From sequence record KP682377.1: 62,708 bases of DNA; one strand, given 5' to 3'. Shown piece by piece: positions 24,001-30,000 of the stretch. How positions within the stretch are numbered: the stretch's first letter is position 1; each line of letters begins with the position of its first letter. This stretch comes from Escherichia phage PA16. A program made the position numbers.

Positions 24001-27000
24001 GTACAGGGATGGTCAGCCAGTGGCGGCAGGGCAGAAGTGGTCAGCGATGCGGAGGGAACCGGAGGTAAGGCAGTGAAGCTGACCAAGGAAGCCGGTAAAA
24101 GCAGCTGGGTGCTGGAGTACGCCGCGGGCAACGGTGCGGCTCTGTTACAGAAAGGGGGGCAGATTCGCTGCCGCTTTAAGGTTTCGGGAGCGCTGGCTGC
24201 GAACCAGTATGTTATGGCGTTTTACTGGCCGGTATCTTCACTGCCACAGGGCGTTGCCCTGACCGGAGACGGGGGGAATAACCTGCTGGCAGCGTTCTAC
24301 ATCCAGACAGATGCAAAAGACCTGAATGTGATGTACCACAATGCGAAAGTGAACCGCCCCGGGTTTCCTGGAGAGTGTTTTATCTGTGAACTCAGGCTGC
24401 CAGATCATCGTTTCCGATGGAAGCATAATAAGCTTTTTCTGCTTCTGCCGGAGGAGTATGGCCCAGCCTTCCCAGCAATCGTCGATTGTTATACCAGTCC
24501 ACCCACGTTAGTGTGGCCAGTTCCACTTCTGCACGGTTTTTCCAGCTCTTACGGTGTATTACCTCCGCTTTGTAAAGACCATTGATGCTCTCAGCCATCG
24601 CGTTGTCATACGAGTCGCCTGTACTCCCTGTTGATGCCAGTAATCCGGCTTCTTTTAGTCGCTCCGTATAGGCCAGTGACACATACTGAGAGCCTTTATC
24701 GCTGTGATGGATGGTGCCAGACGGACGACGGGCCCACAACGCCTGCTCCAGCGCATCCAGCACGAATGTCGTTTCCATAGACGATGAGACCCGCCACCCC
24801 ACGATGTATCCGGCAAACACATCAATGATAAACGCCACATAGACGAAGCCCTGCCATGTGCTGACGTAAGTAAAATCAGCCACCCACAGCTGGTCAGGTC
24901 GTTCTGCCACGAACTGACGGTTTACGCGGTCGCCTGCGGCAACGGCTTTCCGGCTGATGGTCGTACGGACCTTTTTACCCCGGAGAACACCGGCAAGTCC
25001 CATAACCGCCATGAGACGTGCCACTGTACATCTGGCCACCCTGATTCCTTCCCGTAACAACTGACGCCAGACTTTACGCACACCGTACACCTGATGATTT
25101 TCATCGTATACGCGCTGTATCTCTCTCTTCAGCCAGTCGTCGTGCTGCGCACGGGCACTGCGTTTATCCGGATGATGTCGCTGTTGCTGACAATGGTAAT
25201 ACGTTGACGGGGCAATATGCAGTTCGCTGCATACCGGTCCGACCCCGTACTGCTCACGCAGCTTATCCAGCAGTGGCATCATTTTTTCCAGAGGCGGTCG
25301 AACTCCGCCTTCGCAAAATAAGCGGAAGCCTGGCGAAGGATATCGTTACTGCGGCGCAGTTCACGATTTTCACGTTCCAGCTCTTTCAGACGCTGACGTT
25401 CAGCGCTGGTGAGCCCACCATCACCGCCCCCGGTATCCCGCTCATGCTGGCGAACCCAGACACGCAGAGTCTCCGGCGTACAGCCAATCTTTGGGGCAAT
25501 GGAACAAATTGCCGCCCACTGTGAGTCATATTCATCCTGACTTTCCAGAACCATACGAATCGCCCGCTGACGGACTTCGGGGGAAAAACGAGTATTTTTA
25601 GTCATCCTGTTTACCTCTTTCTCAGGGAGTTTAGTCTCCAGGATTTCCGGGGCGGTTCAAAAGTGGCGACAAACAACCTGAAACTGGGAACCTTTGGCGC
25701 ATTTGATAACGAATGGCATACGCTGGCTTTCCGCTTTGCCGGGAATAACAGCCTGCAGGTGACGCCGGTTATTGATGGTCAGGATGGCACACCGTTCACG
25801 CTGACGCAGTCACCGGTCAGTGCCTTTGCGGCGGATAAACTGCATGTGACAGACATTACCAGAGGTGCGACTTACCCGGTACTGATAGACAGCATTGCGG
25901 TGGAAGTGAACAGCACAGACACTGCGGCATGATAAAAAAACCGCCAGCGACAGGAATGGACGCTGGCGGTGGTGATACCTATGGAGAAAAAATAAAGGAA
26001 CGATACTTTCGTACTCTGGTTTTTAATGAAAACAGTTCTTATTGTCAACAATAACGGAAAGAAATTATGACATTTCTGAACCAGTTAATGCTGTACTTCT
26101 GTACGGTGGTCTGTGTGCTGTATCTCCTTTCGGGTGGGTACAGGGCCATGCGTGACTTCTGGCGCAGACAGATTGACAAAAGGGCCGCTGAGAAAATCAG
26201 CGCCAGTCAGTCAGCCGGAAGCAAACCCGAAGAGCCGCTCATTTAGCGGCAACTTTCTTAATCACACCTTTCGACGAGAAAATCCCATGTCAGAAATTAC
26301 ATCCCTGGTCACTGCAGAGGCAGTGAAGGACGTCCTGCGCTCTGAAGAAGTCCGGAGCGCACTGAAACAGAAACTTCGCCATAACCTGGAAGCGCGTCTT
26401 GATGCAGAAGTGGATGCCATTCTGGATGAACTGCTTGGTGTACAGGCAGAGCCACCGACTGAAGCGGGAGATACCACCGCAGAGAGCGGTGAAGTTCAGC
26501 CTGAATCACCGGTCGCCGATGCGACTGAACCTCAACCCGAATCGGTCATGATGCTGTAACGGGGAGTCAGGGCCATCAGTAAACAGCTGCTGGCCTTTTT
26601 CATGTTGTGAGCTTCCGGATTGCGGGAGACGGGGTATGTACCAGATGGAAAAAATCACAACAGGTGTGTCATACACCACGTCAGCGGTGGGAACGGGCTA
26701 CTGGTTCCTGCAGTTGCTGGACAGGGTTTCCCCGTCTCAGTGGGCGGCAATAGGCGTGCTGGGGAGTCTGCTGTTTGGGCTGCTGACATATCTGACGAAC
26801 CTGTATTTCAAGATTAAAGAAGACCGGCGTAAGGCGGCACGGGGAGAGTAAGCTGATGAGCAGGAAACTCCGCTATGGTTTATCGGCTGCCGTTCTGGCG
26901 CTGATTGCCGCAGGTGCTTCTGCGCCTGAAATCCTCGACCAGTTTCTGGATGAAAAGGAAGGTAACCACACCACAGCATACCGTGATGGTGCGGGTATCT

Positions 27001-30000
27001 GGACCATCTGCCGTGGAGCCACCCGGGTGGATGGTAAGCCTGTTATTCCTGGCATGAAGCTGTCGAAGGAAAAATGCGACCGGGTTAACGCCATTGAGCG
27101 TGATAAGGCGCTGGCATGGGTGGAGAAAAACATCAAAGTGCCGCTGACCGAACCCCAGAAAGCGGGGATCGCGTCATTCTGTCCGTACAACATTGGTCCC
27201 GGTAAGTGTTTCCCGTCGACGTTTTACAGACGAATTAATGCAGGTGATCGAAAAGGTGCCTGCGAAGCTATTCGCTGGTGGATTAAGGACGGTGGCAGAG
27301 ACTGCCGTATTCGTTCAAACAACTGTTACGGTCAGGTATCCCGTCGTGACCAGGAGAGCGCGCTGGCGTGCTGGGGAATCGACAGATAAGAAGAATATTT
27401 TGCTGAAAAATGAGGTTTGCTTACATGGACGGATAACACGAAATCCTGCAAATTGGCAAAATGTAAGTGAATAAAGTCAAAACAGTTGTTTAACACTCAG
27501 GCACCGTAATGATGCCTTTGTCATTTCTGCGCATCTCACGCGCATCTCACAACACAGAACCTTTCAGGATGACCCTTGAGGATACCGGTTTGGCTGTCGG
27601 TGCCTTTCTGTGGGCTGGATTCCTGTGAGACAAGGTTCATCACTAAAAGGAAATAACCGATGAATATGATGGCCGTGCCGTTTCACGGCAACTCTCTTTA
27701 TGTAGTTAACCATAATGGCGAACCATACGTTCCCATGAAACCTGTCGTTGCGGGGATGGGGCTGGCCTGGCAATCACAGTTGGCTAAGTTAAGACAGCGT
27801 TTTGCGTCAACTATAACGGAAATCGTTATGGTTGCTGAGGATGGGAAACAACGCAATATGGTGTCCATGCCACTTCGAAAACTTGCCGGCTGGCTACAAA
27901 CCATTAATCCCAACAAAGTAAAACCCGAAATCCGCGATAAGGTCATCCGGTATCAGGAAGAGTGCGACGATGTTCTTTACGAGTACTGGACGAAGGGTTT
28001 TGTCGTTAATCCCCGTAAAATGAGCGTGATGGAAGAACTCAACCAGGCTTGTGCTGACATGAAACGGGATAAAAACATTGCCAGTGTGTTTGCTACCGGG
28101 CTGAATGAGTGGAAACAGGTTAAAGCCGCGCATGTATCAAAAATCCGTACGCTGGTAAATGAAGCGAATATGCTGATTGATTTTGTCCTGGCTGATACAG
28201 GCAAAGGGAAAATAACAAAGGCGGATTGATGGGGTGGCTAATGATATCAGATAAACTCATAACGCTGGTGAAGAGCCTCTGTGTACTTGTCGGCATTTCA
28301 TTTTTAGTCATGCTGGTTGCCATTTTCTTTTCCACCGCCTGGCGAGTCCTGACGTTATCGGGACTGGTGGGGTGAAAGAGAGATGAACCGTGTTCTGTGT
28401 GTGGTGATTATTGTCCTGGCGGTTGGCTATGGTGCGCTGTGGCTGGCAACAAACCATTACCGTGACAACGCGCTCACCTACAAAGCGCAGCGCGATAAAA
28501 AAGCCAGAGAGCTGGAACAGGCGAATGCCACCATTACTGACATGCAGGTGCGCCAGCGTGATGTTGCTGCGCTCGATGCAAAATACTCGAGGGAGTTAGC
28601 CGATGCGAGAGCTGAAAATGAAACTCTGCGTGCTGATGTTGCCGCTGGTCGTAAGCGCCTGCGGATCAACGCCACCTGCTCCGGTACCGTGCGTGAAGCC
28701 ACCGGCACCTCCGGCGTGGATAATGCAACCGGCCCCCGACTGGCAGACACCGCTGAACGGGATTATTTCATCCTCAGAGAGAGGCTGATCACTATGCAAA
28801 AACAACTGGAAGGAACCCAGAAGTATATTAATGAGCAGTGCAGATAGAGTTGCCCATATCGATGGGCAACTCATGCAATTATTGTGAGCAATACACCCGC
28901 GCTTCCAGCGGAGTATAAATGCCTAAAGTAATAAAACCGAGCAATCCATTTACGAATGTTTGCTGGGTTTCTGTTTTAACAACATTTTCTGTGCCGCCAC
29001 AAATTTTGGCTGCATCGACAGTTTTCTTCTGCCCAATTCCAGAAACGAAGAAATGATGGGTGATGGTTTCCTTTGGTGCTACTGCTGTCTGTTTGTTTTG
29101 AACAGTAAACGTCTGTTGAGCACATCCTGTAATAAGCAGGGCCAGCGCAGTAGCGAGTAGCATTTTTTTCATGGTGTTATTCCCGATGCTTTTTGAAGTT
29201 CGCAGAATCGTATGTGTAGAAAATTAAACAAACCCTAAACAATGAGTTGAAATTTCATATTGTTAATATTTATTAATGTATGTCAGGTGCGATGAATCGT
29301 CATTGTATTCCCGGATTAACTATGTCCACAGCCCTGACGGGGAACTTCTCTGCGGGAGTGTGCGGGGATAATCAAAAACGATGCACACCGGGTTTTCTCA
29401 TTTTTCACGAGATGGGAGCGATTTCCCGCGAAGCCGCCTGTCCGGTGCGGTGGTGGAAGAAACCGGATAAAACAACCGCATTGTGCAAATATCGATCAAA
29501 TATGGTGCTGCTGTGTGAAATCTGAAAAATCACAGCGGTCATTATGCATCAGTTTTTAACACAGGACGTCAGAACGTGACATGGCAAAGCTGGACTGGAA
29601 AAAGCTGGAGCAGGCATTCCGACGCGAACATGCCGAAACGGGAATAACATTACTGGACTGGTGCCGGAAGAAAAAGATTAATTACAACACCGCCAGAACC
29701 CGTATAAAAATGGGCAAAATCGATCATGAAATTGATCATAAAACCGATCATGAAATCGATCATGACATCTCAGATGAAGAACCCTGCAATGACGCGGGTT
29801 CCGGCGATGAAAAATGTGCAAAAAACTCTGAAAAAAACTGCGCAAATTCGGCAGAAACGAAACGGATTCGTGGTTCCCGACTTTTACCACCTTCAAACGC
29901 TTTTTCTCAGCGAAACACCCACGCCGTAAGACACCGTGGATATGCGAAGTATCTTGAGGCAGATAACCTCATGGATGATGCGTCCGACATGGTGCTGTTC

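Follow-up and report, generated by a model that had tools for sequence, protein, structure and literature searches.

The sequence record KP682377.1 of Escherichia phage PA16 (62,708 nucleotides (nt); this whole stretch is called the window below) carries a lysis cassette at 26636-28847. It comprises a holin gene, S, an endolysin gene, R, and the spanin genes Rz and Rz1. Between R and Rz lies a passenger module of roughly 1 kb (about 27483-28376), made up of a weak terminator-like hairpin, a leader of ~130 nt, an ant-like gene and a gene for a 48-residue (48-aa) membrane protein. The leader, which encodes a conserved RNA fold involving the Shine-Dalgarno (SD) sequence of the ant-like gene, is the principal subject here. 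The locus can be assigned with good confidence to the late operon of a Sakai-type Shiga toxin 2a (Stx2a) phage, as its lysis cassette with a passenger module inside. An earlier note, made from the sequence alone, had described a cassette of the phage-21 type at this place, and a list of open reading frames (ORFs) together with a Pfam scan recovers every gene that it described where it had put them. The features of the cassette are the following (aa, amino acids; SAR, signal-anchor-release; TMD, transmembrane domain).

26636-26851, + strand: S, class II holin of the phage-21 pinholin family, 71 aa (Pfam PF04971 'P21 holin S', E=7e-33, 63 of 64 profile positions)
26856-27389, + strand: R, predicted SAR-type endolysin, 177 aa (Pfam Phage_lysozyme PF00959, E=6e-25)
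26877-26927, + strand: SAR-like segment of R, roughly codons 8-24 (hydropathy and Gly/Ala/Ser content)
27390-27482, + strand: conserved stretch directly 3' of R, near-identical up to the hairpin in the window, in an Stx2c phage (L130) and in PhiR12_1 (L004)
27499-27526, + strand: weak hairpin resembling a terminator (AGGCA-N9-TGCCT followed by TTGTCATTT), which bounds the cargo module on the left
27529-27652, + strand: leader, resolved into its elements below
27660-28229, + strand: ant-like gene, 189 aa (P22_AR_N, PF10547, E=1e-45, then an ORF11CD3 helical region; no P22_AR_C)
28229-28375, + strand: small membrane protein with a single TMD, 48 aa (PHROG 4906 over its full length, E=5e-30; one strong TMD by hydropathy)
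28383-28847, + strand: Rz, inner-membrane spanin, 154 aa (Pfam Phage_lysis PF03245, E=1e-49; TMD at residues 1-24; 72% identity to RzpD)
28603-28788, + strand: Rz1, outer-membrane lipoprotein spanin, 61 aa (Pfam Rz1 PF06085, E=7e-22; annotated Rz1 in VT2-Sakai)
28879-29172, - strand: bor (Lambda_Bor, E=3e-30)

A covarying RNA fold at the SD sequence of the ant-like gene

The spacer between R and the ant-like gene is highly conserved over about 130 nt in Salmonella phages ST104 and ST64B; the conservation ends exactly at the ATG, beyond which the coding sequences are unrelated. Further copies of the leader, in HK639 and in a Klebsiella phage, stand before a Rha-like and a 'DNA binding protein' gene. 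At least 120 IMG/VR contigs were matched in a pattern scan, and 120 of 127 pattern matches, counting all loci then collected, passed a check for the ribosome-binding motif (two were later discarded as chance matches). In the resulting set, about 80 sequences are distinct when their flanks are included, and 54 when the cores alone are compared. In the window the leader, present as a single copy, consists of the following elements.

27529-27543, + strand: P0 hairpin GCGC-ATCTCAC-GCGC, conserved 5' side of the leader (alignment A6 and RNAalifold)
27551-27652, + strand: structured core of the leader RNA (covariance model R1, 122.8 bits)
27553-27559 (5' strand) with 27606-27612 (3' strand), + strand: P1, a pseudoknot helix (covariation)
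27560-27564, + strand: anti-SD element, CCUUU
27566-27578 with 27631-27644, + strand: P2
27579-27588 with 27615-27624, + strand: P3
27592-27604, + strand: P4
27646-27650, + strand: SD sequence, AAAGG

Minimum-free-energy folding of single cores yields, in almost all cases, one long and irregular SD-burying hairpin common to them, in which CCUUU pairs with AAAGG and P2, P3 and P4 follow, with stabilities of -32 to -48 kcal/mol across variants. The nested helices are paired in 96.3% of cells of an alignment that had been fitted to the model structure and thus favours it; the corresponding figure for shuffled data is 82.9%, and 0 of 500 shuffles reach 96.3%. Changes have occurred on both sides in 19 of the 29 nested-helix pairs, and controls with slid partners pair at 30-55%. 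The pseudoknot joins the 7 nt immediately preceding the anti-SD element to the internal loop 3' of P4: at least 6 contiguous base pairs (bp) can form in 52 of the 54 variants (a cross-variant control averages 7 of 54), and six or more complementary haplotype pairs are represented, among them CACAGAA/TTCTGTG, CGAGAG/CTCTCG, CCAAGAA/TTCTTGG, CTCAGAA/TTCTGAG and CCCGAG/CTCGGG. P0 is less variable, with the commonest pair in 78-79 of 81 rows at each of its four positions and single-row compensatory changes at two of them. A covariance model built solely from copies of the window-like type A recovers the divergent types at 45-62 bits, as well as copies that the pattern had missed. These comparisons show, with strong covariation support, a conserved RNA fold in which the SD sequence of the ant-like gene is paired with an anti-SD element.

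Several considerations weigh against this reading. One is the fitting of the alignment just mentioned. Another is that the single-sequence fold energy of the leader is unremarkable (z = -0.55), so that the structure is revealed by the comparative data alone. A third is that the collecting pattern fixed CCTTTCAG and CTGTGNGACARG, and the invariance of these motifs therefore carries no information. Applied to 81 sequences, MAFFT and RNAalifold find the P0 hairpin alone, the subtypes being misaligned and P1 being a pseudoknot. A leader peptide, MTLEDTGLAVGAFLWAGFL (27569-27628), was a separate candidate and was rejected: the type-B and type-C leaders have no ATG at that place, and the ST104 copy loses the stop codon.

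Scanning the whole window against the 4,227 families of Rfam 15 gives no gathering-score match to the leader. At E values up to 10 no family overlaps the type-A leader (scan of 27380-28420), and the families overlapping a type-B copy are microRNA models far below threshold and nothing else. Literature searches found no paper describing the leader. It resembles SD-sequestering leaders such as the lambda cIII element and the pseudoknot riboswitches in that the ribosome-binding site is paired upstream, with a pseudoknot as tertiary lock. It differs from the lambda cIII thermo element (Rfam Lambda_thermo, itself matched at 7898-7956 of the window) in having no Rfam match, and from typical thermometers in its much greater stability (the -32 to -48 kcal/mol given above). 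Its loops vary from one subtype to another, an argument against a small-molecule pocket. It also stands apart from SD-sequestering leaders in being accompanied by a terminator and by downstream genes that can be swapped.

Contents of the gap between R and Rz

In the prophage DLP12 of E. coli K-12, there is no gap between rrrD and rzpD, which share an overlap of 4 nt, whereas in the window R and Rz are about 1 kb apart. The GC content, 0.54-0.55 in S and R and 0.54-0.57 in Rz, is 0.45-0.48 in the module, 7-10 points below the flanks. The contents of the gap also differ among Stx and related phages: leader, ant-like gene and 48-aa ORF in the window; a 72-aa TMD protein in the Stx2c phage; a 60-aa protein and a 43-aa PHROG 4906 homologue, with no ant, in PhiR12_1. 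The contiguity in DLP12, the alternative cargo and the drop in GC together identify the R-Rz junction as a cargo site and the ant module as an insertion between R and Rz, just as the earlier note had it. Phages with different downstream cargo are nearly identical over the first 95 nt or so beyond the R stop codon, as far as a hairpin of terminator type; this hairpin is a strong one (CCCCG...CGGGGTTTT) in the Stx2c phage and in PhiR12_1. The stretch at 27390-27482 may give rise to an RNA derived from the 3' untranslated region of R, or it may simply be part of the R module.

The junction between S and R is occupied in other Stx phages, where a DUF1327 passenger gene is found (L004, 820-1537; L007, 820-1305; L130, 718-1065), in one instance accompanied by a DUF1823 gene on the opposite strand. 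Both junctions of the lysis cassette thus accept cargo.

What the three variants of the R-Rz gap have in common is that one or two small single-TMD proteins are encoded directly upstream of Rz; in the Stx phages compared, the gap is a cargo site with small membrane proteins in every variant. For the window copy, the tiny hydrophobic ORF previously placed at about 28239-28376 is real, by its PHROG 4906 match and by a frame that stays open in four diverged variants, but its extent is most likely 28229-28375. Its ATG, at 28229, overlaps the stop codon of the ant-like gene (TGATG), and the protein would be made by coupling to ant translation. The ratio of nonsynonymous to synonymous substitution rates (dN/dS) of these variants is 0.30-0.47 relative to the window copy; comparisons of the other copies with one another give noisier values.

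The passenger module, or at least this 48-aa protein, might itself regulate lysis, in the manner of an antiholin or as a spanin-associated factor that tunes the timing of lysis and toxin release. The small TMD proteins that precede Rz in all of the gap variants (48 aa; 72 aa; 60 and 43 aa) speak for such a role, as do the presence of the PHROG 4906 homologue directly upstream of Rz even in the ant-less PhiR12_1 and the position of the 48-aa gene within the lysis cassette, translationally coupled to ant. The reading is nevertheless unlikely: Pfam and PHROG searches reveal no similarity to a known antiholin or lysis regulator, purifying selection is moderate only (dN/dS of 0.3-1.5, on few sites), and most phages carry the leader-plus-gene unit after Rz, apparently without the 48-aa ORF (this last being an impression and not a count).

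The 189-aa gene had been called antirepressor-like, and the name fits its N-terminal part. It matches PHROG 524 'anti-repressor Ant' (E=2e-112) and, through P22_AR_N, is 50% identical to a 300-aa Ant of the P22 type, an identity confined to residues 1-126. The name does not fit the remainder: the P22-type protein is composed of P22_AR_N and P22_AR_C, but the Pfam scan finds no P22_AR_C in the 189-aa protein, which has ORF11CD3 in its place. The gene is not a truncated remnant, because the best 120 of its 2,580 homologues share both Pfam domains without exception and, in most cases, a length of about 188 aa; these 120 include proteins from Escherichia, Salmonella, Xenorhabdus, Photorhabdus, Serratia, Proteus, Arsenophonus and others. 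The C-terminal domain of P22 Ant is found elsewhere in the same phage, in an early gene at 17416-18150 (+ strand) that combines ORF6N with P22_AR_C and is preceded by Rfam matches to the c4/isrK antisense RNA at 17165-17363 (+ strand). P22 Ant's two domains are thus divided between this early gene and the lysis-cassette gene. A second early gene of antirepressor type lies at 18219-18947 (+ strand; Rha and ANT/KilAC). A sequence search finds no relative of the ant-like protein in the PDB. Its AlphaFold model (predicted local distance difference test score, pLDDT, 76.6) comprises an α/β N-terminal domain and a long helical hairpin, and gives no significant Foldseek match; the best matches, at E=0.2-0.3, are to the SKI/Dachshund and APSES (Mbp1) DNA-binding domains and are suggestive only.

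Whether this protein acts as an antirepressor is a separate matter. Literature searches found no paper with experimental work on the lysis-cassette ant; the Ant studied experimentally in Φ24B is of the early-region type, and it is the C-terminal identity of that protein to P22 Ant that was stressed (PMC3064807). The setting differs from that of P22 ant in immI as well: the gene lies in a lysis cassette and not upstream of a tailspike gene, and the Arc/Mnt/sar control is missing, with no arc- or mnt-like ORFs adjoining it in the ORF list and no sar or other Rfam match there. A working antirepressor would, by analogy with P22 Ant, bind and inactivate the phage CI repressor and thereby speed induction or affect immunity. 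The identity over residues 1-126, the PHROG 524 match and the annotation of the gene as Ant in every deposited record agree with that. It is distinctly unlikely all the same, given that P22_AR_C resides in a separate early gene, that the experimental evidence from Φ24B concerns the other type, that the adjacent arc, mnt or sar-type control is wanting, and that a late-operon gene behind a terminator-like hairpin, with its SD sequence buried, would yield its product after the lysis-lysogeny decision. The label 'antirepressor' is thus half justified for the lysis-cassette gene, which is not to be equated with Φ24B Ant.

Distribution and possible role of the leader

At least 115 viral contigs carry the leader, as do 880 of the 5,426 complete E. 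coli genomes scanned; a genome that has it holds 3 copies in the median and 10 at most (4-7 copies in each of the O157:H7 genomes listed). Pattern scanning of the genome collection returned mostly chance matches in unrelated phyla, which made filtering with the covariance model a requirement. In a scan of species-representative genomes the model confirmed 22 copies, nearly all of the named ones in Enterobacterales: the hosts include Raoultella, Serratia, Pantoea, Erwinia, Tatumella and Arsenophonus, and there is one copy in a metagenome-assembled genome of Cellvibrionaceae and two in loci without a title.

The flanks of the leader are as characteristic as its fold. A terminator-like hairpin with a run of T precedes it in 81 of 88 unique flanks when G·U pairs are allowed, a count that supersedes a first one of 10 of 115, for which perfect stems were required. 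The usual form of this terminator is a strong AGCCTCGC-N4-GCGGGGCT-T5+ (in RNA, AGCCUCGC-N4-GCGGGGCU-U5+), relative to which the window copy is weaker; the record of HK639 annotates its copy of the hairpin as a terminator. The nearest upstream ORF of at least 100 aa (n=89) is Rz in 47 cases, DUF6246 in 11, an endolysin in about 9, LysC in 4 and a Q antiterminator in two, the rest being mostly tail genes. The leader unit is therefore typically the first after the lysis cassette, and its placement before Rz in the Stx phages is the exception. Among the genes downstream (n=82), KilA-N accounts for 37, Rha for 31, P63C for 10, HNH for 7, P22_AR_N for 5 and T5orf172 for 1. In one IMG/VR contig (L082, 1-2700), R is followed by a leader, an ant-like gene, a PHROG 4906 ORF, Rz/Rz1, and then a second leader with a KilA- or Rha-like gene, an arrangement suggesting that recombination between leaders moved either Rz/Rz1 or the passenger gene.

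We tentatively propose, as a possibility that falls short of an even chance, that the leader at 27529-27652 is the founding example of an undescribed family of cis-regulatory RNAs: pseudoknotted, SD-burying, equipped with its own upstream terminator, and serving as a portable 'expression socket' for interchangeable KilA-N, Rha, Ant-N, P63C and HNH genes in prophages of Enterobacterales. Such a socket would limit these genes to a gated late burst, and might in addition provide homology for gene swapping. Judging from the anatomy, the passenger gene is probably reached solely by terminator-resistant late RNA polymerase, and the fold, in which AAAGG pairs with CCUUU and the pseudoknot acts as a lock, probably keeps ant translation low or conditional. 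A promoter scan of 26000-29700 found no promoter-like site on the + strand, and hence none for ant; its one site is on the minus strand near bor, compared with 4 expected by chance. Late read-through transcription is suggested by this absence, which, on the other side of the balance, fits the read-through idea without proving it.

The ~130 nt before ant could instead be a 'linker' for recombination at the level of DNA, a stretch of homology for swapping the downstream gene that has no function as RNA. The abrupt end of conservation at the start codon, beyond which at least six unrelated gene families follow, and the two leader copies that flank Rz/Rz1 in contig L082 are the outcome expected from homologous exchange at the leader. 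As the whole explanation this is quite improbable, since DNA homology alone selects for no such pairing as is seen in the many compensatory double changes of five helices, the pseudoknot included. The RNA fold and the recombination linker are not mutually exclusive roles, and the socket proposed above accommodates both.

The lysis genes, their setting and the meaning of the leader

The remaining components of the cassette are those of a phage-21-type system, as had been described. For S, the PF04971 match is joined by 82% identity to EssD, the phage-21-type holin of DLP12. Residues 33-56, which alone exceed the hydropathy threshold, form one strongly hydrophobic TMD; ahead of it, residues 8-27 are weakly hydrophobic and rich in Gly, Ser, Thr and Ala, and aligned positions 21-29 are identical to TMD1 of EssD. 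A weak, SAR-like first TMD followed by a stable second one is the pinholin layout, and S has it. The dual start of phage 21 is retained, as Met1 and Met4 (the second, in-frame start at 26645; 26636-26647, + strand). The N-terminal extension is M-Y-Q (MYQM), in contrast to M-K-S (MKSM) in phage 21, and Lys2 is absent. Two S products may therefore be made from this sequence, but the charge-based antiholin mechanism of S21-71 is not supported and may not apply. Directly upstream of S lies a DUF826 ORF (26113-26559, + strand; Pfam E=1e-28), of which VT2-Sakai annotates a shorter version, H0120.

The alignment of R with the R21 structures 3hde (inactive form) and 3hdf (active form; E about 1e-17) spans the whole protein. 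RrrD (4zpu) is matched as well, and the catalytic triad of R, E35/D44/T50, of the T4-type Glu-8aa-Asp-5aa-Thr lysozyme arrangement, is conserved at the same positions in RrrD. The N-terminus has basic residues at R3, K4 and R6, then a weakly hydrophobic stretch (scored over residues 4-28) of which Gly, Ala and Ser make up 44%; no Cys occurs before C52, which leaves the SAR domain free of Cys, and Pro24 directly follows an ASA motif at residues 21-23. A Pro at +1 blocks cleavage by signal peptidase I, and a Cys-free anchor distinguishes the R21 type from the disulfide caging of P1 Lyz. The basic residues, the weak hydrophobicity, the lack of an early Cys and the Pro after ASA together argue for an uncleaved signal-anchor. 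The classification of R as a SAR-like endolysin of the R21 type is thus supported by its sequence. That R belongs instead to the ordinary secreted endolysins, whose signal peptide is cleaved off, as its basic residues, hydrophobic core and A-S-A motif might suggest, is highly improbable in view of Pro24, of the Gly/Ala/Ser content of that core, of the alignment of the N-terminus with the SAR domain of R21 in full-length 3hde, and of a partner holin from the pinholin family, which is unable to release a folded cytoplasmic enzyme and needs one that is already exported. The same prediction of a SAR endolysin was made by Pinto et al. 2021 (PMC8136144), and published predictions assign a SAR endolysin together with a pinholin to about 99% of Stx phages (PMC8136144; PMC10462455).

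Rz and Rz1 are an embedded two-component spanin of the lambda type, consisting of an inner-membrane (i-spanin) and an outer-membrane (o-spanin) member. By its Phage_lysis match and N-terminal TMD, Rz conforms to the i-spanin type, whose periplasmic part is a coiled-coil domain. Rz1 is fully contained in Rz, as the earlier note had claimed; it begins 220 nt beyond the Rz start, which puts it in the +1 frame, and has the lipobox V-S-A-C at residues 17-20. The likeness to phage 21 and DLP12 (essD-rrrD-rzpD-rzoD-borD) extends to gene order, functional logic, the embedded Rz1 and the convergent bor downstream, as well as to the identities of S with EssD and of Rz with RzpD, the triad numbering of R and its Cys-free, SAR-like N-terminus. 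The differences, apart from the distance between R and Rz and the loss of Lys2 from the long S product, lie in R, which is distant (33% identity to RrrD/R21) and has a 7-residue insertion near the C-terminus and several extra Cys.

From what is known of phage 21, lambda and the protein families concerned, the cassette would be transcribed as a whole from pR', downstream of stx2, by Q-modified polymerase. S would accumulate in the inner membrane and at a set time form small holes that collapse the membrane potential. R, already exported by Sec, would until then be kept inactive on the periplasmic face of the membrane by its weakly hydrophobic N-terminal anchor; upon depolarisation it would leave the membrane, refold and cut the cell wall. 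Rz and Rz1, spanning both membranes, would then disrupt the outer membrane. Set against this scheme are the low identity of R to R21 and a long S product without the Lys2 that makes S21-71 an antiholin, so that the dual start lacks its positive-charge feature; moreover, the formation by S of nanometre-scale pinholes that depolarise the membrane and do not pass endolysin, like the Sec export, tethering and membrane release of R, is ascribed by homology.

Other elements of the window include an IS629/IS1203v insertion sequence at about 24350-25660 (- strand), which, as in VT2-Sakai, separates the lysis genes from the ORF that follows stx2; the frameshift site of its transposase coincides with an Rfam match to the ALIL pseudoknot at 25208-25324. 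Further Rfam matches are to STnc100 and the anti-sRNA AsxR, which adjoin each other, the lambda cIII thermoregulator, three tRNAs, the sok antitoxin RNA and sRNA-Xcc1 (jointly at 22269-22528, 7898-7956 (lambda cIII), 20612-20860, 59416-59590 and 62212-62300).

The 2.8-kb lysis region is 100% identical to that of many deposited Stx phage genomes bearing the same annotation. Escherichia phages PA4, PA5 and PA11 match it at 100% and share the genome length of 62,708 bp and the coordinates; VT2-Sakai and Stx2 phage II are likewise 100% identical. S, R, ant, Rz, Rz1 and bor are already annotated at these positions in the matching records (H0121-H0126 in VT2-Sakai), with cross-references to 933W L0107-L0111 and L0143. 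Where the VT2-Sakai and Stx2 phage II records differ from the present description is in leaving the 48-aa ORF and the leader RNA unannotated and in labelling the 189-aa gene a full 'antirepressor'. The lysis cassette itself is ordinary, was accurately described earlier and is already known, the locus having been annotated since about 1999-2000.

As is well established, the lysis cassette sets the time at which a Shiga-toxin-producing cell bursts, and hence the release of Stx2. Within it, the leader RNA is the sole element that appears to be undescribed. If functional, it would be a handle on when and why the poorly understood proteins of the KilA, Rha and Ant types are made; a fold so widespread and so well supported would, if the proposal holds true, gate a whole class of shuffled phage regulator genes.

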